A program made the position numbers and the translations under genes. From Balanoglossus misakiensis (Eukaryota > Animalia > Hemichordata), in assembly GCA_040954595.2 (NCBI GenBank), contig CM082586.2, positions 6,682,509 through 6,746,508 on the forward strand: DNA of 64,000 nucleotides. The letters run 5' to 3'. Shown here piece by piece: positions 1 to 29,793 of this stretch. Each line of letters begins with the position of its first letter. The stretch's first letter is position 1. The notes beneath the pieces were generated by a model. It had not been told where the DNA came from and did not search any database. It saw only the letters and a program-made list of their open reading frames with translations.

Positions 1-197
1 TCCACCTGATCGTGGAGGAATTTTGGTGACAAAAAAGCCATGTAAAAGCATGTAAGAATCTGAGAATAATATCAATGTCCTCAAGCAATTCAAAATAGCT
101 GCCACTTTTTTAATTACAGTCAGAATTGCGGGTAAACTGAAAAGAGGTATTACTGGCTGAGGTAAGCCATAGCAGCTAACTTGCCAAGGTATTTCAA

Positions 198-270
198 GCA
201 ATAATGGTATCAACCAATAATGACATCAAGCAATAATGGTATCAACCAATAATGACCTATAGCAATAATG
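198..270. repeat. Short imperfect tandem repeat (about 32-33 bp unit) in the presumed ADAM17 3' UTR
   Basis: gcaataatggtatcaaccaataatgac occurs twice, plus a partial third copy. Confidence 0.75.
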
Positions 271-453
271 GCACCAAAATACAGAGGGTAGTTCTACCAA
301 GTGTAAATGTCCCTCTGAAATAGAATTTTCTTCAGACAAGCCAATTTGATCTCGATGAGGAACCGTTTTCTCACTTCTGGCATTGCTGTCACGTTTTTTT
401 GTGTACCTTGGTTGGGGGTGATGAGGTAGCTACTGTTCCAGCCATTGTTTCTG

Positions 454-3400
454 CTACATCCGCGTTTCAAACTGTATTTCTTGGGGTCTCACAGGAGGCT
501 GTGAGGCCAGCTTGTGGCTCTGGACCCTGTGTACGTCTTGTGGACGGAAAAGCTCGCGATTCTGAAAGAAATAAAAAAAAAGACAAAGTCTGCTCATTTT
601 CACAGAAAGAAAATTTTCTAATAGAGTATCCTGGGATTATTAAACTTTGCGAAACATCTGTCTGAATCAATGATGTTTCACGGTTTCATCTTTTCCTCAT
701 AAAACTAGAGTAAACCCGACTTAGCCGAAATGTCACAGCAGCTGAACCAGGCGACCCCTACTTTTGCAGCAGCAGTGGCACGACCCTGTGCACTGACATG
801 CTGGGGGGTCAGTCCATTTGAAAAGAAGCGGGGAACAGCAGGTAGGAGGACGATGAGCTTTCAGTTTGAAGTAGAGTGAGGCACTGGTGTGGTAACGGCA
901 AAACAAAGACATTACGGGAACATCTGACGTGCACTATACGCATCACTTAATCTTCTTCAATACAAACTGAGTCACTCCTTATCTATAAATAATTGCATCA
1001 TTCAACTGCATCAAATCACAATTACGTCAGCTGACGTCATTCTGTCATGCTGCAGAGCCTGACAGACAGCAGGAACAGTCTGCATAAGTAATTGCATTTG
1101 TATTCAGGTTTTCTGTTTCCTGAATTTTTTTTCACATGAAGAAAACTGAGTTTACCGTTGGATGAAGCCACTTGTTAGCTTCCTCAGCCTCCTTTTCTCT
1201 CCTTGTGTCCTGAAAGAGGAGAAAAAAAAACACAAATCTTCAGAAAATATTCTTTGTATGTATGTATGTATGTATGTATGTATGTATGTATGTATGTATG
1301 TATGTATGTATGTATGTATGTATGTATGTATGTATGTATGATGTATGGATGTATGTATGTATGTATGTATGTATGTATGTATGTATGTATGTATGTATGT
1401 ATGTATGTATGTATGTCTTGTTCTAAAATTAACAGTTCATCAGATGTCACAGATCATCATGACTAAATGACAGTTCCCACGGTCTTTGTTACTATGGCAC
1501 AATGAAACGGTTGCTTTGACAACTTACCACGTAATGGACCACACAGCTACACGGTATCCAGATAATCAAAGACAAAACGATGACAGTGCCTACGATGTTG
1601 TCCTCCATGAATTTTGCTGCAGATAGAGACAAACAAAACATGTGGTGACTGTGCTTATCAGCAGTGTAGTGTAGTTGGTCAAAATTTGACATCATCTCTT
1701 GGTCATCTTTGAACATAAGCTATAAAAACCACTGAACTACCTATGCTGTTGATGTTGATATCTTCGATGACATCCCAAAATCTTTCCACAACATCCTGGG
1801 TGGACTTCTTACAGATACCCTGTGACGACAGAGGAAATTGGTGAAAATTGGATCAAAAGTACAGAGTGTTTGCTTACTATCTCAGAGATGCATAGTTTGT
1901 ATATGCTTTTCTAAGGATAACACTAGATTGCTCAGGAAGGTCATGCTACTACCATATATTGGTAACTAAGTAAGTGTACATGTGAATATAACTGACCAAA
2001 AGTTATATTACTACATGTATTGTAGTAGCAAATTGTGTTGGTCAAAAACTGCATGTCCAGTACCTAAAGCGTCGCCTCACTGACACATAGCTTTTGTGGA
2101 ATCCAATTATCTGGCAGAATGATTGCACAATAATTATGGCAGCTACAAATCCCCTGTAAAAGTGGATACTTGAGGTAACAACCCGTTCTCGCAAAGAGAA
2201 AAAAATAGTAAATAAAGTTGACGTACCGCATTACAGAAACCATTTCCACAGGGCACTCCGTTGGGTAATTCACGTGGTTCTGTTATCTCTTCGTCTGTGT
2301 ACTCCGTACAGCCAGTGATGGGGTCGGCCCCGACGTCATGGCAACAACGCATACACAGCTTGGATGCTGCGAAAGAAGATGAAAATTTTTTTAAGTTGCA
2401 AATTATGTGGGGTAGTGGTTTGCTATAAGCGATTCTTGCAGTCATTCTCAATTAATCTCTGTGAAAAAACCCTACATTGCTAAAGAAATGGTCCATACCA
2501 ACATATACAACAAAGGAATAGTTTAAATCGTCTTATGGGTAGGGGTGAGCAGGAAGCACTTACCTTCTTGACAGATGCAAGAAACCTTTCCTCTGGCTTC
2601 GCAGAAGGGCTCGCAGATTCCATCAAAACATTTGCCGCTGGAGAAGAATGCAAGAAACACTTTTGTTACAAAAATTCTCCATGTATGCACTCCATATTTA
2701 GTGGTAGGATGTTACAGAGGTCACATTGTCACTTGAACAACAACACTGACCGATAACACACACAAGCTATGTCGACAAGGCCAGTACAGGGTTTATTAGA
2801 AATTGCATTTGGTACACAGAACAACAACAAAAATTAAAATAAAGCCAAAAGTTACAGCTAATGTCCCTTTAATATAAATATATGCACGATATCAATCTAT
2901 ACTCACTCATCAATACATTCTGTTCCGTCTGTTTTCGGTTCAGATGGCGGACATATCTCACTGTTGCCTAGACATTCCGTTTTATTTAAACAATTGACGT
3001 TGTCACTCGGCCTACAATCCATGCCCGCTGGTGCATACTTGCATTCATCGCAACAGGCTGAGTTAGCATCACTGAAAAAAAAAAAATTCTCTGTGTGTTT
3101 GGATATTCAGACTACTTAAATTTTAACTGTGTACCTGAAAAACTAAAATACACAGGACTAAGGAGTTTCATATGCATATCAGTTGTTGCTAGGAGATTGA
3201 ATAAAATATTGAGACTGCACAAGACACTGGCCGGTTTTCTTCTATAGTATAGATTTATTCAGTGACATGACAGACTCCACCAGGACGGTCACGTACACAC
3301 CATTGACCACATCAGAAGTCTATTAAACTCTTGTCAAACTGACCATGGCCATGTCCTTTCGACCCCTTGGCATCAACTAAACACTACCACAGATAGCGCT

Positions 3401-6400
3401 ATACATTTTGTACTATATGACCAGCTCAATGTCAGACAGCATAGATTTCACACTGAATGATTCTATATTGAATCAATTTTTCAAAGAAAAAACACAGGCT
3501 GCAAAGGTCAAAGGCGAACCTCCTTACCTACAGATGGCACCTAGTTTGAAATAGCAGTACTTGTCACAGCAAGCATCGTCATTGTCCAAACCGACCAACC
3601 CCGCATCACATTCTTCGCCGTCTTCAACCTGATAATTCCCACAGAATGCCTTGTCTGGACCTTTTTCTGGAAAACAAAATCAAAACTGCGATTAGATTGT
3701 GATATTACATTGCACCTCAGACTGATAGAGAAGTTACTAGGAATGCCATGTACATGTATGCTTACTCAAGCCACTGTCACCATAGCATGGGAAGATAATA
3801 TCAAAAGGACACTTACGAACAAAACACTTATTTGCCTTCGCTTGGAGAACAGGTCCTACGAATCTGGAACTGCATGGCGAAAATTTCTGTAAATAAAACA
3901 CAAGAATATCTGTGAGGCAAGGATGGTAATTTTTAGGGGAAAAACAAAAAACATAGACACACTCTTTCAACAAAATACAGGCCAACTTTGAGCACATGCG
4001 GATCCAAACTATTAAACCTCAGTACTCGATGTAATGTTGTTAGCTTTAGAAGAGAGAAAACTCTCACCTTGTTGTTGTCATAGAAACCGTTGACCGCTGC
4101 AGGATACATGACGTATTTACCCCCCCTGCTCTGCTCTGGCGAGCATTCACCTGTGTCAGGGTCGTGCTCACTGCCAAAGTTGTGGCCCAATTCTGAGAAG
4201 TTAAAACAAATATATGAATGATCAAGAAAAAATCGCTAACACGAAATTTTATGCAAACTATATAAAATACAACCTTCCCATACTGCACGTCAGTGGGAGT
4301 GAGGAAATTCTTGTTTTTGGTTTATACAAGTTTTTTTTAATAGTGTTTTATATGAAGGAAACTGTACGACAGGATTTAGTTTAGACAGGTTTTAGTCAAC
4401 CTAGTTTTGCTCATTTAGAACGATGGACAATACTAAATCCTTCTCCTGGCGGCAGTGTGTGATGGGGCCTTGCTGCAGTCTCATCCAATTGGTCATGTTT
4501 TAACAGATATACATTCGAACTTTCACAAGTTAAATTTTTCTGGTGTTCACTGACAAGGGAGGGTCACTCACACAAAGCAATGTGGCATCATGCTCTAATG
4601 ATTGACAGCTTGCTTCAAGACAGCCGTTCACCTGAAGGTTCAGATCTGAAAATGTTATCATATTTATCATTTACGCAAAAACTTACCATGCGCTGTGACC
4701 AGATCTGCTTCTTGCGTCAGAATTCGACGATCCCAATTGATGGTTGTCGTAAGACCAGTGTTCAAGTACAACTTACCATTGCCCGAGTAGTAAGCTGAAA
4801 TAGTAAACAAAACCCTCACAGGTATTTCCCAATTACCCTAGCACTGTATTCTTACATCTGAGCATCACTGTACATATAGTGAACACCATGGACATTTGCC
4901 AACCAGTTATTTTGAAATTTTCCTAATATTTGCAGCAGCATCATTATATTGCCAACAAGATATAAATACATACCAAAAGAAGAAAGAATAATTTGCAAAT
5001 TCTTCAGAAATTAATTGAAGAGATAAAAACTAGGAAGATGGTTGTAAATAATAATACTACATCTTACAAAACCAGAAAAAAAATTCTTTGATAAAAGTTC
5101 AAGTGTTTATCCAGAAGAAAAATAAGATTTTCTATCAAAGGATTCATGAAGAAAGGCAGAGAGTTTTAGAATTCATATGAAGAAAAACATAACTTGAATT
5201 TGCAAAAGGGGCGCCGACCTCCGACCTTGACCCTCAACTTAATCAACTATTGTTATAAATGGTCTTGCAAGCTTAAGATTTATTCTTTAGTTGTAATGAT
5301 ATAACAATGACATGCACAGTTATGATGACAACATGCATAGTTACCATAGAGATTAACTACATGATGTAGAATGGTTAGTGAAAAGCAACTAGGCAAGATT
5401 TCAAAGAGAACAATAATTTTAACACTTTCACCCGAACTCTTGGGTCGATGAATTTTATCCCTATCAGCCTGATTCTTGTCAACGTAAACATTTTCATGAA
5501 ATGTTAGACTGGATCCTATTGCACTACTACGCTGTACAGTTTAGACTCACTGATTTCAATGGTGTGGTTGGACATGTTACAGGGGAAAAAAGGCATTCAC
5601 CATAGTAGAGTTTTAACAACTTTTCGTGTACAGGGAATTGAAGGTTTTGATCACTATGCGTACAATCATATACACCTTTTTCATAAAGAGAGTGCCCTTC
5701 CAAAACATGGCACCATCTCCAAGCAGTCAACATGAAAAGGAGGCCAGTAGGTCACAGAGTATTGATCGAGCTCATCTGGTTTGTTGTATATATGATACAA
5801 GTTGCGTGTGAAATTTACTTTATGATAAAATGCGTGTCGAACGTCGATCCCGACAATGGTGATGATACACAAGACAATTAAATTTTTACTATGTGACCTA
5901 CTTGCCTCGTTTTCGCGTCATCTACTTGGAGACAACGCCAATGTTTTGGAAGGGCTCCCTCTTTATGAAAAGGCGTATTAACAAATGATTTTGCATGGTA
6001 CAGTTTGAGTCATGTGCAGCTGGGAAATGGGAGGGTTGGGGGTCGGGGGATGGGAAGGGGCGAAAGTACTAAAACGGGGTTGGTAGGAAAACAGCACCAT
6101 GCATTACTGAGGGAGGATGGCAGGGTTGCAATACATTGAACAGTTAAAAAACCACCATTATATCTATGAACATTATTGGCAGTCACAGGAAAATGGAACA
6201 ATTACGGTAGTTACCAGTACAACTGCAGATAGTAGACAACACAAGTCTTTACATTTACGGGAATAATCTTTGAGATGTAAAATTTTGAATCATTTTATGT
6301 AAGGCCAGATGTTACCTCCATGTTTAGTGGGATATGTGGTGATGTGACCATGTTTGTATGGCAGATGTATGTGGCTGTATGGCAGATGTATGAGGCTGTA

Positions 6401-9400
6401 TGGAAGATTGATGTGGCTGTATGGCTGATGTATGAGGCTGTATGGAATATTGATGTGACTGTATGGTAGATGTATGTGGCTGTATGGAAGATTGATGTGG
6501 CTGTATGGCAGATGTATGTGGCTGTACATGTATGGCAGATGTATGAGGCTGTATTAAAGACTGATGTGGCTGTATGGTACTGTGGTGTGGTTGTACCAGA
6601 ATGTAGCAGTGTGTATTACCTGGCTACATTGTTTTACTTTCAATTGTGTCATTGTTGGGGTGGACATCTGTACAAAATTGACCTTGGTTGTCTACTATCT
6701 TACAACACATACACAGTGACAGTGACTGCCAATTGTTAGTACGAAGCAGCAATGGCCTCCCCAAGGAAGGCCAAAAATTCGGACAATTACGCAGAAAACA
6801 AGTCAGTGCTTACGCGATGAGCAGATTCCTCCCACTGCATAAGTTCTAGGGGTTGCAATGTAAGCGAGGCCTAGCACACCGTCGGAGAAATCTTGGTACG
6901 TGAACAGGTGAGACAAACAGACGGACGAGTAGTCGTTCGTGCTAAAACTCTGCAACAGACAAGAGACGTGAGGGAGTCTTACGTGGGGAGCAAATTCCGC
7001 CTTGGACGCCTGGCCTGGGCGTTGCTATGTAGGCCAGGCCCAGTGTGCCGCCGGGGAAGTCTTGGTACGTGAACAGATGGGCCACGCAGAATGTAGAGTA
7101 ATCATGGGCGCTAAACAGCTGTCAATGAGAATAACACCAGTTGGAAATGGTTACTTTCTGTGTGACTTTAGAAATGACAGATCTACAACCTACGTCTCAA
7201 AGGCTGCAGAGATTTTGTTTCAGTTTTGTATAGAAATACTTTGGGTTACAATCTTGTGTCACACACCTATAAAAGTGAGAATTATTTTCAGATTTTCTTT
7301 AAATATCAATTTCAGCAAATTGGTAACACAATTCGCGACATGTATCTTGAACATTATATATGATATATTAAACAACCACTATATGGAGATTGAACCTAGT
7401 TTCATATTTTTTTGTAAATTCTACACATTGCTCGTTCCCATTTTTTCTCTTACTGTCAGTAGATCAGACACGTCCCATGGTGATGTTTTCTGCATGTTGT
7501 AATGTTGACTGTTTGGCGCCACCCACGTCGCTTCTGTGTGCACCAGGATCTACAGAGAACAGAGAAAAGTGGTATGAACTATAGAGGGTGCTATATACAG
7601 CTAGGCCGGTACTTGTGTTTATCTTTTTGAACATAAAACATAACTCTTCACAGAAGAATCTGACTTGTTGATAACGTGATTTCTGTTTACCTCTTTGATT
7701 TCAAATCCATAGCCGTGGTAAACGCTGGCCCAACTTGTGTCTCGGTACATGAAGTCAACTCTATCCACCAACCCGATCTGTGAGAAACAAGAAAACAAAA
7801 AACATGGTTTAACCCTTGCATCACCATGGTCAAGTCCAAATCCATTGTTTTCTATGGGAAGGTTGGAGGAAATTTAATACCAGGTTGACTCTGTTGAAAA
7901 TAAGTGCCAGATGAAAAACTAAGGCTTCTTCTAATATTGAGACCACAGTTACACGGCTTTATGTACATGTAGTACACATAGAGAGACACACAGACACAAC
8001 ATGTCAGCCATATTGGGACTCTGCATACTGTACGAATACAGCAATGTATCATACAATAGAATGTCACAGGATACTGTAGTAGATGTATGATACTGAACAG
8101 TTTCTACCAACAACAGGAGTAGAAGACTTTATTACAGCCACCCTACCATGTAATTGACAGTACTGGTGACATCGTCTCTTCCCATACTTTGGTAAAACTT
8201 GTAATCAGCTATGAGGAGAAGTGGACAGGTGTTTTTGGCAGCTGCCCTCTTAGATCTGTGATGTTCATAACCTGAAAATAAAATATTTCATTTGCCAGAA
8301 AGACTCTCCTCAGAGTAAAATTCTTTTTGGGGTGGGGTGGGGGTCTAATCCTCGAAGTCATTCAAAATTCCAGGAGATTCTGTCCCAGTTTTCAGGACAA
8401 ACATTCCACATTACAGGAGCGATTTTGTGTTTTCTTGGTTAATTTTTCCTGGTTATGTGGTGTATATGGTAGTTGACTGTCAGCTACATCCTTACCGGTG
8501 TAATTCTTCATTCCGGAGTATTTCCACGCCTGTCTGTGCTGTTCATACTCGGCTTGAAGCTCGTCCGGAAGATGGTGACTGTGACCACAGAAACTGGAAC
8601 AGAATGTGAAACAATCTTGGTGAAAAAATTTTTGCACTGCCTTGAGTCTAACACCGACACACACGTGGTATTACATGTACTGTAAGATTCTCCGAACAAC
8701 TATAAACAGGAACACTATCACTGTGCTTGAAAAAGAATCTGAATTTATGGGTTGCAAGATGTTCAGTTTTGGTTGTATGCCGACAACAATTGCTGGTGTC
8801 ATTTGACCCATTTTGGTTGTAGTATTTAGAGAGGTAGTTCAACTATTAGAGTGGGGATGAAGGAGTCAGGGGGTGCCACCCTCATGATCTCAGTCTCTTG
8901 CTTACCTCCCTCTTCCGCCTTGAGTAAGATTATACTTCACATCGGAATTACGATATGCGATCATTGTAAAATTGTGCTCCTCTGAGACATGCCTCCATGA
9001 TGGCTGAGAAAATAAGACACATACATACACAATAAGGTAGGGACACATCAGCTTCATAATTTACTTAACAAAAAAATTAAAGTGATTTGCAGAAGATTAA
9101 CTAGATTTCCTAAAGGAGTGATTGAAACTTCGTACAGTACATTGATTGCTTCCACTGTCTGTTGCAGTGTTCCAGGTTGTTTGATCCAAATCTGAAAGCT
9201 TACCTCTATCACAAAAACGTCTTCTCTTGTGCTTATTGTGGCCGTGAGGCTGTCTTTCTCAATCATTGCTTTCACGTGGCTGTCCGATTCATCTGAATAC
9301 AGAAAACAACATGAGCATTTCAAGGAGAGCTTATAGCTTATAGCAGAGTTAGTACCACTGTCAGTTTAGTAAAAGTTGGAGTGGGGCATGATGCCTTGAG

Positions 9401-11506
9401 ATTATTTGGTATGGGGATAAAATAACTAGGATTCACTTTTAATAGGCATCCACTTACAATTCTGAATTACACGTACAATACAAAATGTACTCAGAAAGCA
9501 TCTCAACTATACCTACGAGGGCGCTGTACAAGACTCTTCAGACTCACCTGCTAAATGACCACGATACAACAAATCGTCATCAACCCTGTGCTCTGTTTTA
9601 TCTCCGTTGCCCTTGACGACATAGGCTCTGAAATTCCTCGCCATGATGTTCGAATGTGGATGCAGGTGGAGGTTGAAATCTTTGCCCAGCACCGAGAAGG
9701 AGAGTTGTTTGATATCTTTTGATGCGCTGTCCACGTCACGCCTGACGATGGAGTGTTTGATGTCGTCGATGTGGAGTGTCTCGTAATAGTGTAACGCATG
9801 ATGCAAGGATCCTAGTGTGAGAAGTGGAAACAAGGTGACTTAGAAGATAATGATAATGGTCAGCATATGATTAAAAGTAGTAACAAAAGTGGCAGCCATG
9901 ACAATCCTTATACAAGGATTCAGTCAGTGGCTGTGCAATGCAGAGCTCATATTAGCTCAAATTTACTCAAGTAACAGGACATCTAACAATTGTTGTTTTC
10001 AGGGCTTTTAGGTATAATAATAATATTTATTTCTTATATAGCACATTACATAATAGAATAAAATCTCAATGCGCTTTACAACATGATAAAAAGTACACTA
10101 AAAATACAAGCTAAAATTGTATATTATAAAGTTGTACATTGTCATTTACAGGATTTTTGTGCTTTAATTCATTTCCCAGGAATTTAAAGAAGTTTATCAT
10201 CTAAACATACATTATGGCAATCACTGAAAGCTATGGCAGTTTAGAGTTTTATCATAAAACTGCTACAGCAATGCCAGATGTCAGGGCTTTTAGGTATAAT
10301 AATAATATTTATTTCTTATATAGCACATTACATAATAGAATAAAATCTCAATGCGCTTTACAACATGATAAAAAGTACACTAAAAATACAAGCTAAAATT
10401 GTATATTATAAAGTTGTACATTGTCATTTACAGGATTTTTGTGCTTTAATTCATTTCCCAGGAATTTAAAGAAGTTTATCATCTAAACATACATTATGGC
10501 AATCACTGAAAGCTATGGCAGTTTAGAGTTTTATCATAAAACTGCTACAGCAATGCCAGATGTGGAGTTAAAATAATAGCTCTGGCTCGTGAGAATCAGA
10601 ATGCATGGGGTAATTAGAGAGCTCTAAAACCTGGATGCTATTGTTGATCAGACCATGCATTTCATCACATAGTACTGTCTACGATCAGACTTGTTTTCTG
10701 GAAGGCCATCTTTTTAAAGTTTTACAATAAGCTGTCAATCTGCTGCTGTGTTTTGACATTGGTTGAATATACAGACAGAATCTGGCTGAAGTGTAAACGT
10801 GCAGCACAACTGAATACTGAAATTGATACCTGTCCATTTCAAGGTCGGCTATTGACATATTGCTGACCTTGTATCTGGTTTCGCAATGTATTAAAATGGG
10901 ATCAAAATCTATATAGGCAAATTTTATTTTGTTGTCATTCAGATTTTCATCGAGAACCAGCAAAGGGGAAGAAAATCATTTCCATGTCTTATGTTATGCA
11001 AATTGCAATGTTGTCACTTTGTTGTCAGTGATGACATTTCATATAACTTTGAAATAACATTGCTTCACATGGACGAATATTTAGAGTGTCAACGCCCGGG
11101 TCAACGTAAACTGTATGGAGCGTCTACGTTGTGTTGTAGTTCCGAGAGTACATAGCGTAATTAATTGACCAATCACAAGGGCTGTAGTCTTCTGCTTCAG
11201 GTGTGCGGATAGTGATTGACCAATCAGAATCGCCGCAGGGGTCTTAATGAATTACCCCAATCATAACTGTCAGGGTGTTAATTAATTAGCCAAACAGTGA
11301 CAATCACTCGATTATCACTACGTCGGTACAGGCACCGCTATTTCTATTTTTAGCTGAGACACAGAAAATGATCTGATCAAGGCGATCGCCGCTATAAACA
11401 TAACACTATGATCGAACGCTCTGTGGACTGGTAAATAGTATGACTTACCTCTAGCTTGTACGCAGAAAACGAACAAAAGTAACACCGATTGTTTTATCGG
11501 CGCCAT
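454..11506 (-). CDS. ADAM17: ADAM17/TACE metalloprotease-disintegrin, complete spliced CDS
   Basis: Phase-compatible GT-AG exons: 11449-11506 (signal peptide [20 protein letters not shown]), 9548-9811, 9204-9292, 8906-9003, 8496-8593 (cysteine switch FCG), 8147-8271 (furin site RSKR), 7691-7777, 7454-7549, alternative 6983-7118 or 6814-6949, 4687-4794 (YLNTGLTT...EADLVTAH), 4068-4192 ([11 protein letters not shown] zinc motif, YVMYP Met-turn), about 3817-3886, disintegrin/Cys-rich exons about 3528-3667, 2906-3071, 2565-2637, 2227-2368, 1742-1820, TM exon about 1528-1616 ([16 protein letters not shown]), 1156-1209, 454-561 (ends ETRM-stop). Motifs match ADAM17 rather than ADAM10. Confidence 0.95.
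1255..1416. repeat. (TATG)n microsatellite
   Basis: Seen directly; produces the HTYI and MYVC pseudo-ORFs. Confidence 0.98.
5670..5978. mobile_element. MITE-like element with about 55-bp imperfect terminal inverted repeats
   Basis: Left arm atacacctttttcataaagagagtgcccttccaaaacatgg...ctccaag is the reverse complement of right arm cttggag...atgttttggaagggctccctctttatgaaaaggcgtat; a partial copy lies at about 61620-61665. Confidence 0.7.
6355..6577. repeat. 21-bp minisatellite (tgtatggcagatgtatgtggc-like, about 10 units)
   Basis: Tandem degenerate units; produces the HLPYSHI repeat pseudo-ORF. Confidence 0.92.
6814..6949 (-). CDS. ADAM17: ADAM17 alternative catalytic-domain exon B (136 nt)
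   Basis: Acceptor ctgttgcag, donor gtaagc; encodes [45 protein letters not shown]; same length and phases as exon A. Confidence 0.9.
6983..7118 (-). CDS. ADAM17: ADAM17 alternative catalytic-domain exon A (136 nt)
   Basis: Acceptor attgacag, donor gtaaga; encodes [45 protein letters not shown]; phase 0 in, phase 1 out. Confidence 0.9.
10000..10563. repeat. Head-to-tail duplication of a 282-bp unit in ADAM17 intron 1
   Basis: 10000-10281 and 10282-10563 both start cagggcttttaggtataat and end caatgccagatgt; no mismatch seen by eye. Confidence 0.93.
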
Positions 11507-11953
11507 AATGTCACTTGATGAGCCGTGGGGATCTACAGGAATTATTTGCGGGCTTGTCACTGCCAATCAGGAAGTCTCACACCTTCGTTGTTGTCATTCT
11601 TTCAGGAAATACCCTTACCATCATGCAGCTGAGATCTATGATTGCTTCTGGCTCGTTCGTGCCTTAAGACTTCGTAAATGTAACACGGCTGAATTGTATC
11701 GAAGAAATAACAAACAATCGTGTTGAAATATTTTTATGTCACTCATTAAGTATGTAGAATATTTTTTTCGACACCTAGTGAATAAAGTATCTGAGTTTAT
11801 TCCGCACAATATATTGCATCGATAAAAGGGTGACCCCTCGCCATTTCTGATTTGAGGTCACCGTCGGTCTAGACCCTTCACCATCGTTGTCGGCGAACAC
11901 CCAGTTTCCTTCTAGTTTGCAGTGAGTTGCAGGGCAGTGTAGCTCTGCACTTG
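11507..11953. promoter_or_regulatory. Putative bidirectional promoter region for ADAM17 and SPAG1
   Basis: The divergent ATGs are at 11506 and 12379. The region is CpG-rich, a + strand donor (g|gtgagt) at 11954 suggests a non-coding SPAG1 first exon, and CCAAT boxes lie at about 11169, 11220 and 11563. Confidence 0.6.
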
Positions 11954-12378
11954 GTGAGTATATATAAGAGAACAAACGTAGTTGTCGAAGTGACGGCTTC
12001 TTGAATGAAAATTGAGAATAAACGCTGGTGAACTTGTGTGCGAGCGTCCGTTTGGCATTCCATGACATGACATCGGTCATTGCGTGTGTATCACGTGTGT
12101 GCGTTTGGTAGCCATGCGGATCAACGGGTATATAATGCAAAAGTGAAACTTCTGGCGAAATGAGCCTTCTGTCATATAATGGAGAACTTAGAGAAAAAAT
12201 ACATACCGCCCCTATCAGTGTTTTTGCCAATTCTATGTAATAGTGGTAAGTGGTTTATGGAACTGGTAAAATTGCTGGGGAACACAGGTAACCACACTAT
12301 AGGAAATACTAGTAATAATACTGCCATTTACTGGGTGTTTCTGTCATTGTTACATGTTCTGGTAGTTCGGATTACAAC

Positions 12379-14788
12379 ATGGCAGAGAACCTGTTTGGAA
12401 GCACCAGTAACACCTCCGCAATCCCAGTAGAACACCTGGACTATACATACATTAAGAACTGTACAGATACCAAGGAACTTGGTAAAATACTTCGGGTATT
12501 GAAGTAAGTGTGCGCAATTCAGTCTGAGCTAGTAATATAAGAGTGAAAAGGGTCAAAGATTCAATATACAAAACTTGGGGTGTGTTTCTCCAGGAAAATG
12601 TTGTTTTTTGTCAGTTCTTGTCTTTGGTTCCACTTCTGCTACCAACTTCATCAATATACCAAAATTACGGTACCTCCCTTAACGAAACCACTGGTATATG
12701 CAGTTTCTTTCATTTACGTGAGGTTATGTTTTCTTATATCAACTAGTTCTGGCGATGAAGGTTATTACCCAGATTTAATCAGATTTTGTGAACAGAGAAT
12801 AGAAGAAGTTGCAGGACCTGAAAGGTAACTGATATTTTTTTTATAAGAGCTGCATGAACTTGCAAGAAATTGAGAGTTGCATTCTCCTCTGCAGAAATGT
12901 TTTCAAAATTGACTTCAACAATATTGGCTCAGCTGAACGTATTTGACATCTAAGGGTGTATGAAAATGACACTGTTTGCTACAGACTTGGCACTGTTAGG
13001 GTTAATAAGGCATCTACAATGAAAATCATGTAGATATTGATTTGCTGCACCTATGGTGTGCCAGAAATGCCTGTAATCATTCCAATGCTTATGTCTTTCA
13101 GCAAGTATTTAAGAAAAGACAAACCACCATCCACAGCTGGAGATATGGAAAAGGAAGAATGGCAGGAGCTATCTTCAAACTTCCAGGTTTGATTGCTTGT
13201 ATCTGAGGAGTTGATGTCTCTTGACTATATTATATATACAACTCATACAATCAAAATTTTGAAGTGTGCAATCCTGTAGTCACTTCTTTTTCGAGTCTTT
13301 GTTGTCCCATCACTGATATTTGAATGTACATGTAACTGGTTGGAATAGAACAATAGTTTATGCGAGTCCCGGGCATAGTGGATTAATTTACTCCTTCATG
13401 GTGTTATGTGAGCATATTTAAGTTTATCTTGTTTTGTGGATGTTTCATGTTTTCTAGACATGGACAAATGAAATGAACCTGAAAGATGATCTCTTGAAGA
13501 AAAACGTACAATCTGGAAGTCAAGAGGATAATCTGCCTCCAATTAGATCAGGAGGCACCATCAATACTGACACAGGACAGGTAAGGACGTTGGCGCTATT
13601 TAATATGACTTGTATGTAACATCAGCATCTCTGAGTTGAACAGTATGACATTAACTTCAAACCCAACCATGCCATTTTAATGTTTGATCACTACATGTAC
13701 ATGGCAAGACCATTTTCTTCTAAACCGGGTTTAGCCCTTTCACCGCCATGGTTTGGTCCAAATGTATTGTTTCCTAAGGGAATGTTGGACCCCTATACAG
13801 GAAAGTGGGGGTTAAAGGGTTTCCTAAGGGAATGTTGGACCCCTATACAGGAAAGTGGGGGTTAAAGGGTTAATAGTGTTGTTAGTCGCTGAAGTCTTAC
13901 TGTGTATCTGACAGGCGACCATGGCAGACACAAAGCCGTTTTACCAACCTTCCCCCGATCGCATCAAGTCGGCAGAGTACAGGAAGTGGGACAAGTTCGA
14001 TGTGGATAAGGAGGTCGAGAAACTCGACAAAGAAGAGGAACCGTACAGCAAACCCCAAAATGCTGATAAGAATGCAACTTTTGACATTGAACATACTATT
14101 GACTCCACTGGTGAGCGAGTTTTAAATGCTCCATAAACGCTCTAACTGTTTTTTCAGTATTTTTCTCCCATGTATCAACTCCAGCTTTTCTTCTTCTAGC
14201 CTGGATAGCTTTATTAAATGTTCAGTTTAAATTCTCAACTAAACCTGTGTATGAGTATTGGCCATTGTTGTTGACAAATGAATTCAGCTTTGGTCTTTTA
14301 AACTTGTTTGCAGTATGCTTGTGGTAACACCAACAGCTTTGTTTTATTCAATCCAGGGATGACAGACGCAGAGAGAGAGCTGAAAGCCAACAGAGAGAAA
14401 GACAAAGGCAATGAGGTAGGAGGGTACAACGCTTGTCATCTTTTGGGGGAAAAGGGGGAGGGGGGGGGCAAGAGATTGAAATATAAAGCAGGAATTGTAG
14501 GTCACTTATCTGTGCATTATTTTCTAAAAATGCTGTCTTGTTTTGCGTGTAGGCGTTCCATGCTAAGGAGTTTGCGGAGGCCGTGGCTTATTATTCCAGG
14601 AGTATATCATTGATCGGTTCAGCTGCAGCTTATAATAACAGGGCTTTAGCAAGTGAGTACATTGGATTTGTGGAATCATTGATGCCAGAAAACTTTTTCT
14701 CTGCCTGTGAGTGTATTGATAAAATTGATTGAAAACTGTGAGTGACTGTATACTAAAATGATGATGGTGATGGTGGTGGTGGTAATGG

Positions 14789-14829
<41 letters not shown>

Positions 14830-17800
14830 GTGGTGGTTATGATGATGACGATGATGATGATGATGATGATGCCCAGACAATAATGATTGTTTATTTTCAT
14901 TTTAGGAATAAGAATAGAAAAATTTCAGGAGGCTCTTGATGATTGCAATGTAGTGTTACAAATGGAAGCAGACAACGTGAAAGGTAGATAAGCTTGACTG
15001 TTCTCTCTGTACTTAATCTTGCATATTACCCTAGAATTGCACATCATGTAGATAGGTGCACTGTGATACTGAGAGTTCTAAGTAATTAACATTACACATT
15101 GTGGTGTTTTACCTGGTGTTATTGCAGGGTACATGCGCAGAGGTGTTTCCAAGAAAGGTCTGAAGGACTTGGCTGGCGCTAAAAAAGACTTCCAACACGT
15201 CTTGTCACTGGAACCGAACAATAAAAGAGCTAAGGTAATGCTGAATGTTAGTGCCAGTGTACCTGTGACTTTGCTATACTGTCAAACCTGTCTATAGTGG
15301 CCAGTCAAGGGGACTTTCCTTAACTTGCCTCTATAGACAGGTCAGTTAGTGCACATGTAACAAAGTGGCACTATATAGAGGTGGCCACTAACACAGGTTT
15401 GACTGTAGTATGAAATGTGTACGCAGAGGTCCTGTTCAGTGAGGCATGATTGAATGCAAATTCCATGGATTGTATCTCACCAAAGCAAGACAGGAATTAC
15501 TCTGGAATGAATATTGATAGTAGTGGAGTACACGTGTTCAAGGGGTTATAACCACCCTGATACCAAAATGCCAGTATATCATCAATACAAGTAATATTGA
15601 TTTTGATGTTCCCAGGATCTGTTGGCGGAGATAGCAACAGAGGAAGAGAAAGCCAAGAAAAATTCCAGGAATGCATCGGCGAACAAATCCGGGAGAAGGA
15701 TAGTTATCGAGGAAGTGGAAGGAAGCGATTCCAGCGAGGAGGAAGAGGAGGGGGAGGGGCAAGGAAGAGAGGGTGTGAATCATGTTGCCAAACAGGAGGA
15801 GGACACCGTAGGAAATGAGAGTGTACACAGAACTAGTGAAAGGGATTCTGATCAGAATGGCGAGGTGCTTGAGGAAGTGATATCGTGGACGGAAGAGGAC
15901 GATCGCAAACTGTTCGGCGATTCGGTGGGAAAAGCCGGAAGCGGGAACGAGAAAAAGACTAGTCCGGACGTCAACGGGGAAGACAGCGATGTCGTGATGC
16001 AGGATGTGTCGGACGAGCCCAAAATTTCCGATGTGACTATCGAGAAAGTCGATTTCGGAAAAACGGAATGCAGCGATCCGAACTCGCAGTCCGATTTGAA
16101 ATCTCAAGATGAAACGGACGGCGCCAGGAAGTCCAAAATGTTGAACGTGGAACAGAAACCCGAGGTTCCACCGCGATCACAGCCACCCGCTGAACCGACG
16201 CAATCTCAGGCGGTGGCCACGAAGCCACCCATGTCAGTCGTGGAGGCGAAACCACCGCCTCCGTCGCCGCCACCACCATTGCCGGACGCGGTTGTGCATT
16301 TGAAGAATCAGGGCAACGAACTTTACAAAGCGGGACAGTACGGGGAGGCCGTGGAAAAATACAGTAAAGCGATAGACAAATTGAAATCAGGTATATCTTT
16401 TGTTTCTTTGCCATGTGTGTATTTTGACAGGGTTGAATGGCTTGATTTATCTGTATGCAACCTTTATGACCAGCTTGGCCTGATAAAATTACCAGCAGAG
16501 GCAACTGTGTTGAGTCAGCTGTCAAAATCTTTTACATTACACTGTTTAGTACTGGTTCAAATTCTTCATGACTAAGGTATGCCTGATGCTCTAGGGGCGT
16601 ATGAAATTTGAACATGACATTGGTTGCTACGGACTTGACACTATTAGGGGTGGATTTCATTGAGATAATGCTCATTGGCAATCTCTTGGGCATCCACAGT
16701 TGTATGGTTGTGTATAATTATATTTTATTGGATTTTCAGATAGAACAAAACATGCTGCGAATCTGTCTGTGTTGTACAGCAACCGGGCTGCGTGTCACGG
16801 CAAGACCGGCGACTGCAGATCCTGCATAACAGATTGCAACACCGCGCTGGATCTGGTTCCATTCTCGCCAAAACCGCTGCTGAGAAGAGCCAATGCATAT
16901 GAAACTCTTGAAAAGTAAGGTGTCCATGTGTAACACTAGCAGTACACTTCTTGTGAATTTTCTTTTCTGAGTTCATAAAATCTGTATGAACATTTACCAA
17001 AAACGTGCAGTGTTCTGTGGACCTAACTCACGGGTCACTAATATACATGTAGTTGTAGTTGCATGGTATCTATATATTTTTTTTCAATTGCATGTGATTC
17101 ACTTCTACCGTTGATTGCCCGGAGAGCCCTAAATTTATTTGATTCAAATGTTTGACCCCCTAGGTCAGTGCAGATCTCACAGTTATGATTATAATTGCAA
17201 TAACATAGACCTCCATTTATAACATAGGCCTCAGATTTCACATTATTTGGGTCGTTGTCTGTTCGTTCAGGTACAGGGATGCGTATGTCGACTACCAGTC
17301 GGTGTTCGTAATGGATCCTTCGTCTGCACCGGCTCAGACTGGGTCGTCTCGAATGTCCAACATACTAAAGGAACAAGACGGGCCCCAGTGGAGAGACAGG
17401 CTCCCGAAGACTGCAATGGGGCCCCCGCTTGCAACAGCAGTGCCAACAGCGCCCCCTATCGTCACCACCACGGCACAGCCGAAAGCCACGAGCGAAACCA
17501 CGACAACGAAGACCGAGGAGTCTGCTCCCAGGATGTCTGCCACCGCAACCGAAGTTCCTCCCAAGGAGACTATCAAGAAACACGAGAACTTGAGCAAGGC
17601 AGAGCGATTCAAACTGTTGAAGGATGAAGGAAACGAGAAAGTTAAAAGGGTTTGTGATGCACTAAAGTACTTGGCAAATATTCAGTTTACCTTAGTTGTA
17701 GGGCGTACATGTATCCCATGGTTCTGCAATACCCTGGTCTGTGAATTTGTATCCTGTTCATAAAGATTGTCAACTTTAGTGAGTTAACATTATTAAAATG

Positions 17801-20800
17801 TTATTCCTTTTTTTCACACACAGGGTCTATTTGCAGAAGCTGTCCAGAAGTACACTGCCTGTATAGGGGTCGACGATATGCAAGTTGTCAGTTTTACCAA
17901 CCGAGCACTCTGTTTCTTGAGACTGGACGAGGTATGACATCACAGTTTTGTATGACATCACTTCCTGGTGTGTGACATCACTGTCTGTGTGACATCACCG
18001 TGTGACCCCAATTTTTGTGTGTGTCATCACTCGTGGTTTGTGGTTGATTTTGATGGCATATATTGACCTTTGGTAGACAGATCACCGAGTCGTTACAATA
18101 TAAGAATTGATATTCATCCTTTCACAGCCAATGAAGGCGGAATCAGATTGCAACACAGCATTAGAGATGGAGCCGGAGAACATCAAAGCATTATTCAGAA
18201 GAGCACAGGCCAGAAAGGTAAGTCTCGGGTGGCTGAAAAAATGCTTACATCAACTTGTCCATAGCAAACACAGAAAGTATGTCTACTTAGGATTGGTTGA
18301 CTGGGACAGGTGCCAATCATCTATACGTGTGCCCATTGATGATTACAGATATTGTGATTTTTTTTTCATTTGGTGTACAGTGAAACCTGTCTATTAAGGA
18401 CACCTCTGGGACAAAAAAAATCTGTCTTTAAAACGGGGGTGTCCTTAATAGACAGGTAACATTCTATTCAATTTGTAACTTTTGTGTTGAAAGTTAATAG
18501 AGAGTTGTCCTGATTAGAGAGGTGTCCGATTTCACTGTACGCTATTTTTCCATTGTGTTTCCAGATGTTATCCCAGTACAAAGCCAGTTTACAAGACCTG
18601 AACACACTGCTGCGTGTGGATCCCAAAAACAGCGCCGCTAAGAAGGAACTGGAGATCGTCAAAGAGTACTGGTTGAAGGTATTGTATGCTACTATGATAG
18701 AGGAGACTATCTATGCTTAATCAAATCACCCCAAAATGTCTTTGCAATGTTGTGATATTTCGCGTGTAATTTGGTATTTTCGGATGTTATTTGTCTTAAA
18801 CCGTGACCTTATCATGAAATCACGTAACAAGGGTCACTCATTGATGGGTCGATTTAACTTTATGCACAAATCTCAACTATTTTGACAAAACAAAAAACAA
18901 AGTTAGTCAAGTATATCTTGCCGTCAGTGTGTATATATACTAGGAGGGCCTCGCTTATTAACCATATGGCCTATACCGTGCCAGTATTTTGATGACCTTG
19001 AACTTGAAGTTGTTCCAGAGGATAATTAGTCTAAAATCATTTGTCGATGTGTGTATCTGTCACTTGCAGGAACTCAGAGAAGATCAGGAGAAACAAAAGA
19101 AGGAAACTGAAAAACAGACCAAGAAAGAGTCGAAGCAGAACACCAACAAGAAACAAACGCAGAAAGCGAGAAATCGCGTCACAATAGAAGAAGTTGAAAG
19201 CAGCAGTGAGGATGAGGAGGTACCATAGATTTTATTGGGAACTGCCTGTTATTTTACCACGGTTCACCTTCATCTATAAATTTTAGTAGCAACCATGTGC
19301 TCCCAAATCTCTGTACAAACACTACCTTACAAAAGTGTAGTGTTGGTTCACAGAATATTTCATGTTTACAATGATGATACACTTACAATGGGAAAATTTC
19401 ACATCATTGAATGTACGACCTGTATTGGCAGCCTTAGTAATATTTAGGGTTTTCATCGTCCAAATTTGTTTGTGTGTGTATGTACACAGGATGAGCCTGA
19501 ACCCAAAGCCAGAGCTAAGAAAACCTCCAAGGCCAAGTCCAAGGGCAAAGATTCGGCGTCCAAGAAACCCGACGCCAAGTCGCCGACGCCAAAGGCAGAG
19601 AAGAAACCAAAGGAGTCCAGTCCCCGAGCAGCTGAACCCGGTAAAACGAAACAGATGACCAAAGGTGAAAAGTCCGAAACAAAAAGTAAATCAGAAGTGA
19701 AAAGTGGTGATGGACACAAACAGGACAAGAAGCAGGCGTCCAAGATTACAGAGGTTTCCAGTAAGCAAGCAGAGCAGCAGAATACAGGAGCCAAGTCTTC
19801 GAAGAGTAAGAAGAAGGGAAAGCAGAAGGCAGCAGCTGAGACTCCTGTCGTGCAGAGCACAGCAGAGCCGGTGCTGAACAAGGTAATGGAGACTGGGAGA
19901 TTATGAATGGGTACATTTCATCTTAACCCTTTCACCACCATGGTTCCATCCAATCCCATTGTTTTCTATGGTAAAGTTGGACCTCTAAAGATTGAACTGG
20001 GGGTGAAAGGGTTAAGATGGCATTTAGTCAAATATTCATAATCACTTCATCACCTTGATTGATCTGGGAATTTTTATCACCCTATAACTGATCAGTAATT
20101 TCAGATCTGTACTTCTATGTGTACTTCGATGTGGCTGCTTCAATGACCGTCCGTGTTTCTACTCACAGGCCACGCCCTACGAGTTTATGCAAGCCTGGAC
20201 ATCCCTCAAAAGGAAAGAGACAGTTCTTTATGCAAAACTTCTCCGCCAGGTGCAGCCAGAGGATCTACCTAGAGGTGGGTGGGATGTTATTGTACGTTTC
20301 GACGTGTCTGTTTTATTTTATGAGCATTTCATAAAGAAGTGGTTGGATTGTGAGGAAGTCTGATATTCCAACGACGTGTCTTGTCTACAGTCTACTATGG
20401 GTACAGGTTTATGTATGCGTGTTATATGTGAGATATGACCTGAATGTGACCCCAACCCCCTAAGATTGCGTATCCGAACCAAAAGCCTGTCCCCCCAGCT
20501 GTTCGGATAATCGACGTTTTACTGTATGTATTTTTTCAGTTATATATTTGGTCATTTGTATTTCAGTTTTGAGTAACAAGTTGGAAGGAGACATGTTGAC
20601 AATGATCGTTAAATCGGTGTCAGAACACTTTGTTGACAAAGGTGAGTTGTTTATCAACAATGTAATATCATATCAGTGTGTCAATTTTGGGATTTGTACA
20701 TGTACTAATAATTGGCTTTTTCTGTTACACTAGAAAAATGCAGTGTTCAGCTAGAAAGTCAACAAGTTGCCTGAGCCTGTGCATTAAACATTGTGTAATT

Positions 20801-25747: not shown

Positions 25748-26197
25748 GTAAACGTGCTTAGTTAGAGTTGACATGCGCCACAACGGTGACTGTCACCTGT
25801 TGTATAGTGTAAAGTTAGCATGGAGGTTTAGTTTGCACATGAAACTTTCGTTACCAGTGTACTGCAGCAGACATGCACTTGGTCTGGGACTGTTTTCCGT
25901 GTGGAATTTGATGCCCCCGGACCGAAACTCATTTCATCCTGAATCAATGGGTCAGCCTAGCAACCATGAATGATGAACAGTCTTAATCTTTCAACTGAAA
26001 TACTTGGTGACACCTATAAAAGAATTCAAAGAAATAAAACTCCTACTGTCTGTCTGTTTTTTAATGTTAAATTTGTAATTTTCTTCTTTTCATTTCAGCT
26101 GGTCTAGTACGTGGATAAGTTCAGCCACTAATAGTGTAAAGGAATCTTCTCAGAAGCACAGTTCAACTTCAATATTGATCAGACCAATCAAACAATC

Positions 26198-29100
26198 ATG
26201 CAGTGCATAAGAACTAAACTCTTTGGACTCCAGTATATTGATTTTTATGCTGGAAATAATTGCAAACTATGTGCTGTGTATGCAAGACACTTATCCACAA
26301 TAATATGCACTTCAAATTCGTCCACGTCACATTGCCAAAGGATTGACTGCAATACTAGGCAAGTTTTCCCCCACAGAACAAGTGTTGCTCCTGAGCACTC
26401 CAGGACTGCTGGAAAAGTTTCAGCAAGGACTTACTCAACTTTCACAAACTCGGAACTACTCAAGAATAAGACAAAGCACTTCACACGTTTACCCAAGAGA
26501 AACATTAAAACAAAGAAAAACATCTATGAGAGGAAACCAAAACAGACTAAAGATGGTGTGGAGGAAATGCCTGTCTTCCAGTATGTTGGGGAGAAAAGTA
26601 AAAGGGCTCAGAGACTGTACGTCTGGGGGTTTTCATTCACTGGGGCGCTTGGAATTCCGACGTTTGTCAAAACCAAGGGGACCAGGAAACCGCCGCGGAG
26701 GTACCAACACACACCATACAGATTGGACCTTGATGAAAAGGTAATTTTGCATATTCAATGTTGGGGTCTACAGTCTTATAAGGATACAAATCGACTGCTT
26801 TTATTAGTATAAACACTCCTTTAGAAAGGAGAAAGATTGAATTTTCTTCATTGTATTAAAATGAGACATGTCCAGTACTGTGGTTATTTCATTAGTAATG
26901 ACCGGTTACATGTATGTTTCAGATACTGGATATTTCATGTGGTTATGGATTTACATTACTTGCCAGTGGTCAGAAGGACACTCGGAAGGTGTTCGGTACT
27001 GGACTAAATACGGATTCACAGCTTGGGTTGCAAGAAATGAGTGGCGTTCCAGGTAAGACATTGGCTGTTCTATAAGATAGTACTACTGCAAAACTATTTC
27101 TTCCATGCAGCCATGGTTCAGGCCAAGCCCATTGTTTCTATGGTACGGTTGGGGTGAAAGGGTTTAACAGTCTTTCGTAGCTAAAGAGCTTCGGTTTATA
27201 TTCTCTCACAACTTCAACCCACTTCAACTTTGTTTTCAGGTAGAAACCTGGATTACGTGATCCGGCCAACCACTATCAACCTGCCACTCAGAAAGCCTTT
27301 GTCGACCAGAGTCTCACAAGTTGCCTGTGGCCGAGCTCATTCGCTTGTGCTCACAGATGAAGAAGGAGGTGGGCAAATACCTTGAGTTTTAATTCTTTTA
27401 ATCAAAAACCACAACTCACACAAATAAGTATGATTTCACATTCTGAACTTACCTTGCATTATACATTTGGTGATGACTTGTTTCTCTTGCAGTGTTTTCC
27501 TTTGGTAGCAATGTCCATGGCCAGTGTGGCAGACCGGTCATCGAAACTGAAGTGTACCAGGCAAATCCAACCATGCACAGACTTAAGCAGTTTGGGAATT
27601 CAGTCGCGCAGGTGAGTTCAGTATCCTGTGTTGTCTGTGCCGTTACTTCCCACTTCAACCATATTCTGTATTGTGTTAGTAACTGTTGCCCCATCATGGG
27701 ATGAAGGGATTGTGATACAAATACATGTACATGTACCGTATATGTCATACATCAGTGTATAGTCCTTTGCTTGTTGTGTCACTACACATGACGATTGGAC
27801 TGTGCTGTACGCCTCCTAGTGGTCAAGAATTATAACATTAATGTCTGTTGTGTTTCAGATTGCATGTGGACATGACCACAGTTTATTTTTGACTGAAAAT
27901 GGAGAGGTGTACAGCTGTGGATGGGGAGCTGATGGTCAAACTGGTAAATACAATCTCTCTTGTCTGTATACGCTGGCTGAATACAGTACAGATAATGTAG
28001 GCTTTGTTGATTTGATATTGAAATACTGTTTGTTTCATCCTGCTTCAGGGTTTCAAATAAGAAAGAGCAGTTTAGATGCAAAAATGAATGTACTGACAAA
28101 ATTTACACAAAGTTACGTCTACATGTATATGTTTAATTATTCGTCATCAGGTCTGGGACATTGCACCACGACTAGTGAACCCACTAAGCTTGAGGGTGAT
28201 TTGAAGGGGGAGAAGATCGCATACATAACATCATTTGCCGACTGTTCTCTAGCGCTTTCAGGTGAGATGGAAGAAAATTTGAGAATCGTTTTGTCTCGGT
28301 GGTCATTTTCGATTCTTTTGATAGTGTCATGTTCAGTAAAAGCTGCATCAACCAATGCAGTTATAATTTGGATGAGTGTCGTGGTAGAATGTCTCAAGAG
28401 ATGTGATGGGGACTGTTAGTGTGTTCCTAAATTCTTATTCAATGATAAGTAGGTTATCCTTTACAGACAATGGTGAAGTGTTTGGCTGGGGGAACTCAGA
28501 ATACAACCAGTTGGCACTGGTCACTGAAAATAGCAAGGTAGGAATATGCTTCTTTACTTGTTTTTAGTGTTTTCGTTTTGTGTTGTGTATTTCAAAGAAG
28601 TAAATAATTCATGTGTACTTTGGCATTCTAGGTCAACACACCCAGCCATATTCCCCTCAACGTTGGTAAAGTGGTTGACATAGCAACCGGGGGTTCTATA
28701 TGTGCAGTTTTGAACGGTAAGGACTGGTGCTTGTCTATAAGACAATCATTTACATAACAGCAGGCAGTGTATTTCTGGAATCAGAACTATTTTAACACCA
28801 TCGTCTACACTTGAACTAAGGCCATTCTTCTGCAAGTAGTGGTGTTACAGATACAAGAATCTGATATTGTAATAAGCAGATACTTGTCATTGTGACCCAT
28901 TTTCACATTTGAAATTTCAAAGAATTTTTATACTGTACATATTACTATCACATGGTTCTGCATAGCATTGTGAGTTGCACAGCTGAAATCTCTAATTTTG
29001 TTTTGGATTTGGCAGATGATGGTGATGTGTTTGTGTGGGGGTTTGGTGTCCTTGGGAAAGGGCCAAACTGCAGAGAAAGTAAAATCCCAGAAAAGATCCC

Positions 29101-29793
29101 ACCGTCTTTGTTCGGTAGGAGTCGGTACCACCAAGATATAAAAGTGACCAAAGTCAAGTGCGGACTCCACCACTTTGCAGCCATCAACAGTAAGTCATTA
29201 TGTGTTATTGGGCTTTAATCGTTTACTGTCGATATCAGGACAGTAGTCCCTAGGCATTTCTCATCCATCATAAGTGGTAGATGTCCAATGGGTAAGTTCA
29301 GGCGGTACTGTCCTAGACTGATATAGGCAGAGATTCAATCAGAAAGTTGCGTGTTTTTCTTGCAAACTGATCTTGTAGCAGAGCTTTTCTCAAAACAATG
29401 GATCACAGTTTAGTTTATAAACATACAATGTTTTGTCGATAGGTCTTGGCGAGTTGTTCACCTGGGGCAGAAATGATACAGGTTGCTTAGGACTGGGACA
29501 TCTGAAGGATCAGTTCTTTCCAATGAAGGTAAGGTTTTAGCGACATTTTTCTGTGAAAATTCCAATCACAAACTGCCTCCAATATTTCCATAGTTACTGA
29601 CTTTTACATCCTACAGTTAAATTAACTCGGTGTGGTATTACTGCCTTCATTCTAAAAGTGACTTTTACTAGATACATTTGTCTCACTGCATGTCTGTATT
29701 TTTGTTCTTTTTCAGGTCCATGTTCCTGGTGAGGTCACCCGCGTTGCCTGTGGAGTCGATCACACTGTTGTCATAGCAAGGACTTACATCTGA
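26198..29793 (+). CDS. RCC1L: RCC1-like G exchange factor-like protein (WBSCR16), mitochondrial
   Basis: VFQYVGEK...YVWGFSFTGALG...PYRLDLDEK, then RCC1 repeats (VACGRAHSL, IACGHDHSL, CGWGADGQTG, WGNSEYNQL) over about 11 exons, ending VACGVDHTVVIARTYI-stop at 29791-29793. The start codon is uncertain. Confidence 0.93.

Follow-up and report, generated by a model that had tools for sequence, protein, structure and literature searches.

The ADAM17 gene of the acorn worm Balanoglossus misakiensis raises the question of whether one protease gene can yield two enzymes by exchanging the exon that forms the rim of its active site. The window, a 64,000-nucleotide stretch of contig CM082586.2, holds this gene with two neighbouring copies of that exon. 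The preferred reading, at a probability of roughly two in three, is that both copies are intact and likely used singly, and that the two resulting enzymes would have the zinc site in common and differ at the rim of the cleft.

Judged by its sequence, the gene is ADAM17. It is complete at 454..11506 on the minus strand, with 21 coding exons when both alternatives are counted and a product of 733 aa with either one. Its best protein match is isoform X1 of Ptychodera flava (567/733 identical), followed by proteins of Glandiceps (491/723), Saccoglossus (454/722) and Amphiura (384/714), a ranking that points to an acorn worm, likely close to the Ptychoderidae. Compared with the human proteins, the orthologous P. 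flava X2 reaches 584 bits for ADAM17 and 197 bits for ADAM10, and its Foldseek matches stand at 1.7e-65 to ADAM17 versus 4.2e-34 to ADAM10. The P. flava orthologues carry the Pfam prodomain, M12B, disintegrin and ADAM17 membrane-proximal domains, a transmembrane helix and an intact zinc motif, all of which map onto exons of the window. Set beside human ADAM17 (PDB 8snl, 1bkc) and ADAM10 (6be6), the protein follows ADAM17 in its domain order, its zinc motif and its catalytic fold. Unlike the acorn-worm pair, the vertebrate ADAM17 rows hold a single exon type per protein.

The neighbourhood contains further genes on the plus strand. Head to head with ADAM17, at about 13900-20700, lies a gene for a TPR protein with an RPAP3_C domain, which we take to be SPAG1/RPAP3-like. 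An RCC1-repeat gene, presumably RCC1L-like, follows at about 26100-29300, and open reading frames at about 60700-62500 resemble, by eye, a TRP-family channel and are a candidate for one.

Exon A (9a), the derived copy, spans 6983..7118 on the minus strand, and exon B (9b), the ancestral-like copy, spans 6814..6949 on the same strand. They are adjacent homologous exons with matching phase, length and splice sites: each has 136 nt encoding 45 aa, an AG acceptor and a GT donor, enters in phase 0, leaves in phase 1 and is free of stops. Exon A corresponds to approximately residues 323-367 of human ADAM17. Upstream lies the shared exon 8 (7454..7549, minus strand, 96 nt, phase 0 at its end), and downstream lies a shared exon (4687..4794, minus strand, 108 nt, phase 1 at its start) whose end coincides with the first zinc-binding His. 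A further shared exon at 4068..4192, also on the minus strand, encodes the two remaining zinc-binding His together with the catalytic Glu and the Met-turn. The intron between A and B (6950..6982, minus strand) measures 33 nt and contains the exon A donor, a predicted branch A, a pyrimidine tract and the exon B acceptor. It is unusually short beside the gene's other 19 introns of 124-2019 nt. A re-reading of the sequence bears out the initial annotation, which had described two homologous 136-nt exons with intact splice sites, common phases, no stops and a 33-nt gap.

The two copies agree at 90/136 nt and 30/45 aa. Their 46 nucleotide differences fall on codon positions one, two and three in 13, 6 and 27 cases (of 45), and Nei-Gojobori estimates give dN 0.23 and a saturated dS of about 2.5. 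As had been proposed, the divergence is thus largely synonymous, which supports purifying selection on both copies. Comparison of A with B by tblastn returns an E value of 6e-19, and no other ADAM17 exon has a twin detectable by tblastn in positions 1-13000 of the window, so the likeness is not due to chance and a tandem duplication is upheld. No third copy of the exon occurs within the window, where the exon HMM matches copies A and B alone. The surrounding introns also carry repeats. These comprise a MITE-like element at 5678-5971, in the intron 3' of exon B, with 31-nt inverted ends and high copy number in the DNA runs, as well as a 21-nt minisatellite at 6334-6612, shorter in DNA run X2, and a short, very high-copy repeat at 7807-7867.

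Reading frames and splice-site geometry suggest how exclusive use would be enforced. Either exon alone, spliced to the flanking exons at 7549-7454 and 4794-4687, leaves the 733-aa protein open. Joining A to B brings a stop at codon 353, which lies 1171 nt before the last junction, and skipping both brings one at codon 316, 1010 nt before the last junction, so the earlier statement that including both or neither breaks the frame holds. In the 33-nt intron, the sole branch-point-like motif, a motif prediction, places the branch A at position 14, with 19 nt left to the intron end. Because the exon A donor lies 14 nt from this predicted exon B branch point, A should not be joinable to B, and the two sites likely compete. 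Alpha-tropomyosin exons 2 and 3 form a steric-interference pair of mutually exclusive exons. Known mechanisms of such exclusion include a donor-to-branch distance below 50 nt, the steric class, and frameshift with nonsense-mediated decay, as set out by Hatje et al. 2017 (PMC5740500). Such steric pairs share with the present one a donor and a branch point that lie too close and a frame shift upon joint inclusion; the difference is that the whole intron here is just 33 nt and the branch point is predicted.

In the proposed mechanism, the two tandem copies of the active-site exon would be spliced one at a time, competition between the exon A donor and the predicted exon B branch point, 14 nt apart, would prevent joint inclusion, and transcripts skipping both exons would be degraded by nonsense-mediated decay. 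Joint inclusion and joint skipping would each be blocked or non-productive, given the branch point predicted from its motif. A docker/selector layout of the Dscam type was absent among 24 inverted pairs at 4687-7800 in this one genome.

The same A/B pair recurs in the orthologous gene of P. flava. Its ADAM 17-like protease isoforms X1 (XP_070533184.1) and X2 (XP_070533185.1) are automated XP_ models of 736 aa each, and their 14 differing residues all lie in this exon. Automated RefSeq isoforms generally rest on RNA alignments. Exon A of the window matches P. flava X2 at 40/45 positions and exon B matches X1 at 42/45, both above the 77% whole-protein average and above the A-B value. Because A matches X2 and B matches X1, the duplication took place before these species diverged, and each copy is under constraint. 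Ten A/B differences are fixed in both species (human-equivalent positions 334, 335, 344, 345, 347, 358-361 and 367), and none of the eight within-type differences falls on these sites. Mutually exclusive use, which had been suggested for this gene, is supported as annotated isoforms in P. flava and predicted in the species of the window. Exon B is 80-84% identical to the single annotated exons of Saccoglossus and Glandiceps, for which the B-type protein alone is on record, and a search for short proteins resembling exon A returned no candidate. Taken with its orthologues, the exon pair is real, conserved and probably functional.

Isoform swaps at this exon also occur well beyond acorn worms. 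The same exon with the same borders is exchanged between RefSeq isoforms in eight of ten insect species compared, a ratio that is no frequency, since the clusters were chosen for a variant exon and several members. The eight are Onthophagus taurus, Photinus pyralis, Euwallacea fornicatus, E. similis, Diuraphis noxia, Acyrthosiphon pisum, Hetaerina americana and Ischnura elegans; the isoform pairs of Anabrus and Cimex show N-terminal differences alone, with no exon swap. In the brachiopod Lingula, isoforms X1 and X2 exchange the same exon. Among arthropod copies, one type is nearly invariant (mean 90%, 5 rows) and the other is variable (61%, 9 rows) and carries a bulge insertion. The variable copies of insects and Lingula have the same boundaries as the acorn-worm exons, and their differences recur at 344, 345, 358 and 361; unlike the acorn-worm copies, they bear a bulge insertion of 1-6 residues, and acorn-worm A stands apart from them in the best tree. 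Across ten A/B-type comparisons, five of them insect ones with another species' conserved copy as a stand-in, positions 344, 345, 358 and 361 differ in 10/10 and position 347 in 8/10.

A metagenome scan of 39 loci adds one further tandem pair, on the insect contig L023, where copies of 148 and 139 nt with the same phases lie about 4.8 kb apart. At that distance, the pairs cannot in general depend on a tiny intron for steric exclusion. Three loci (L019, L020 and L027) cover both flanking introns and have one copy each, while L022, L024, L025 and L026 end too soon upstream to show a second copy. Seven of the 39 (L032-L038) represent a more distant ADAM exon, and in many of the loci an intron is missing from one border of the exon or from both. 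Arthropod contigs L005, L006, L008, L009, L011-L015, L017, L018 and L029 have introns elsewhere and cannot swap the exon, because its border intron or introns are missing. Portions of two exon copies are included in the Owenia gene model (P0092, an annelid) and likewise in model P0344. In existing annotations, the exon swap appears in 0/10 isoform pairs of echinoderms and Saccoglossus and in 0/3 of Branchiostoma, whose differences begin just downstream.

Several of these genes vary at nearby sites as well. The Branchiostoma isoforms P0089, P0247, P0250 and P0251 differ by cassettes of 5-22 residues directly 3' of the exon, one with two cysteines, located at the base of the ADAM17-specific hairpin region. 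In Amphiura filiformis, P0070 and P0187 (X1/X2) differ at residues ~272-302, where the next-upstream exon, equivalent to 7549-7454, is exchanged for a homologous one; that exon has no twin in the window. This is a second apparent site of mutually exclusive exons in the ADAM17 catalytic domain. In the ENA proteins P0004, P0005 and P0063-P0065, which are mollusc-like genomic ORFs, the first half of the exon, with its acceptor side, is repeated in tandem up to eight times ahead of the full exon, which suggests a local proneness to duplication.

The distribution of pairs can be explained by one duplication or by several. An exon tree under LG+G4, built over 47 columns from 65 peptides after two partial rows had been removed from the set of 67, groups acorn-worm A with B (98/90), the insect variable copies with one another (98/93) and five spiralian-type variable copies together (96/94), and weakly places A outside B plus Glandiceps and Saccoglossus (97/79). 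Because acorn-worm, insect and spiralian copies each form their own group, separate duplications are indicated, and the exon pair probably arose repeatedly, with the acorn-worm pair born of its own duplication in parallel with the other two. A single duplication in the bilaterian ancestor, followed by homogenisation or re-duplication in acorn worms and by loss in echinoderms, chordates and many protostomes, is possible but distinctly less likely. It would explain why insects, spiralians and a deuterostome all have this exon doubled in identical phases, and why the derived copy stands upstream in L023 and the Owenia model as it does in the window. AU tests reject none of five alternatives (p 0.131-0.381), including two that fit a single origin: all variable copies as one clade (0.205) and insect plus spiralian variable copies (0.381). 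The others are A with the spiralian copies (0.131), A with vertebrates (0.262) and a ptychoderid-only pair (0.204). Against a single origin, the free tree, which pairs A with B, gains 16.7 log-likelihood units over a tree that forces all variable copies into one clade, the variable copy comes second rather than first in model P0344, and many losses would be required.

Structural models indicate what the swap would change, whichever way the copies arose. By alignment, exon position n corresponds to human ADAM17 residue 322+n. In the P. flava X2 model, the exon spans strands 319-324 and 334-336 with the surrounding loops, at pLDDT 79-93 over residues 301-360. Across some 253 columns the modelled catalytic domain superposes on TACE to about 1.5 A, and the model and overlay agree with the earlier placement of the segment at the bulge and edge strand of the cleft. 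Seven of the ten fixed A/B differences sit at 344, 345 and 347, in the bulge that forms the S1 wall, and at 358-361, in the loop after the edge strand. Both isoforms have residues 348-350 in common, as well as the Met-turn, the catalytic Glu and the zinc ligands. According to PMC12491190, Thr347 lines a non-prime hydrophobic site, Leu348 and Gly349 supply backbone hydrogen bonds, and Tyr352-Val353 belong to a flexible loop on the P side. PMC5098442 reports that TIMP-3 contacts the sIV bulge-edge strand and argues that the cleavage site is less decisive in the substrate choice of TACE; the available portion of PMC12184519 describes the pockets and names none of the swapped residues. Since these catalytic elements do not differ between the isoforms, a tuning of fit is to be expected rather than a new kind of enzyme. 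A tuned specificity is thus a likely outcome of the swap, in which the changes in exon A would adjust the fit of substrate, TIMP or prodomain and would not convert the enzyme into ADAM10. The initial proposal that the two isoforms differ in substrate or inhibitor preference may hold in this form.

Among single-copy orthologues, too, variation is greatest at the swapped positions, and for that reason their clustering is no proof of selection on specificity. This variability also speaks for a rather unlikely alternative, in which the exons are mutually exclusive but nearly equivalent, or A is a rare minor form, and the pair is kept for expression control or stability rather than for a choice of substrates. 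The main substrate hydrogen bonds come from shared residues (PMC12491190), the two other acorn worms have B-type proteins alone on record, and one copy suffices in several arthropod contigs and in all vertebrate rows seen, which fits near-equivalence too. It accords less well with the P. flava comparison, in which exon A keeps 40/45 residues against a gene average of 77% and the ten fixed differences persist in both species, or with the retention of two distinct types in insects across damselflies, aphids and beetles. Two exons that are likely used singly, and enzymes predicted to differ at the cleft rim, remain the preferred reading.

The initial annotation went further and called exon A ADAM17-like and exon B ADAM10-like. 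The human motifs that it quoted agree with the PDB chains, and the three residues before the edge strand are those of human ADAM10 in B and nearly those of human ADAM17 in A. Both exons nevertheless score higher against ADAM17: exon B gives 47.0 bits against human ADAM17 and 31.2 against ADAM10, and exon A gives 47.5 and 29.7, so exon B is rejected as an ADAM10-type segment. Among the 120 invertebrate ADAM17 rows listed, position 347 is Val in 94, Ile in 14, another residue in 5 and without a call in 7, so that Val or Ile occupies 108/113 called sites and is the normal invertebrate state. Thr stands there in 51/51 vertebrate ADAM17 rows, and also in P0402, an ADAM10 orthologue (1.5e-147 to human ADAM10). 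Val at 347 is accordingly rejected as a diagnostic of ADAM10. A parallel change is the simpler account of the Thr in A, although the AU test does not reject a grouping of A with vertebrates. The proposed division, with an active site of ADAM10 type from exon B and of ADAM17 type from exon A, is thus very improbable. On the residues compared, B is best described as the ordinary, ancestral-like invertebrate state and A as derived.

An assembly artefact or a decaying pseudo-exon, suggested by a 33-nt intron far shorter than the others, can be dismissed, given orthologues of both copies in P. flava, saturated synonymous sites between A and B, and single contigs that span both exons in each of DNA runs X1 and X2. 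These runs come from one sample of one study. The contig from DNA run X1 is identical to the window at the exon pair and may be the source of the assembly. That from DNA run X2 represents a second haplotype, with six substitutions, of which four lie in introns, one is silent in A and one changes Thr to Ala in B. Its two indels also lie in introns; one of them adds 2 bases to the short intron and makes it 35 nt. DNA run X3 yielded no contig over exons A/B.

Homologous mutually exclusive exons near functional sites are a known class. According to Lam et al. 2021 (PMC7954323), tandem-duplicated exons of this type keep the fold and swap residues near functional sites. PKM1/PKM2, PFKP, Drosophila CRMP and CG42249, treated there, follow the same principle; the difference, as far as that text goes, is that the ADAM17 swap lines a protease cleft. 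ADAM17/Tace is unmentioned in the text or the 6 supplements of PMC7954323, one supplement of a human tandem-exon catalogue (PMC8373072) has no ADAM17 or ADAM10 entry, and ADAM17 splicing was not found in the available part of PMC3055250. The ADAM17 pair is present in RefSeq annotation, and no description of an ADAM17/Tace exon pair was found by title or abstract opening, in a coverage that leaves out most subscription papers. Hatje and Kollmar 2013 is reportedly a catalogue of mutually exclusive exons in the fly, and Tace may be among its entries.

Splicing of this kind is well known, and the significance of the pair lies elsewhere. What governs ADAM17 substrate choice, and how much the cleft contributes beside iRhoms and exosites, is unsettled. 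The isoform pairs are natural chimeras, 14-26 residues apart around the cleft and identical in the rest, and they offer a direct test of the cleft's role. Work on invertebrate Tace based on a single cDNA may miss half of the enzyme. Moreover, an exon doubled in three bilaterian lineages provides a clear case for the question of convergence versus descent in mutually exclusive exons. A broader, more tentative proposal, with about one chance in three in the analysts' view, is that the ADAM17 rim exon is a recurrent splicing switch of bilaterians, duplicated independently in acorn worms, insects and spiralians. In each lineage one copy would have stayed conventional and the other been remodelled at the bulge and the loop behind it, and the isoforms would shed different substrates in different tissues. 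If this is true, many invertebrates would control their sheddase at a level that vertebrates lack.
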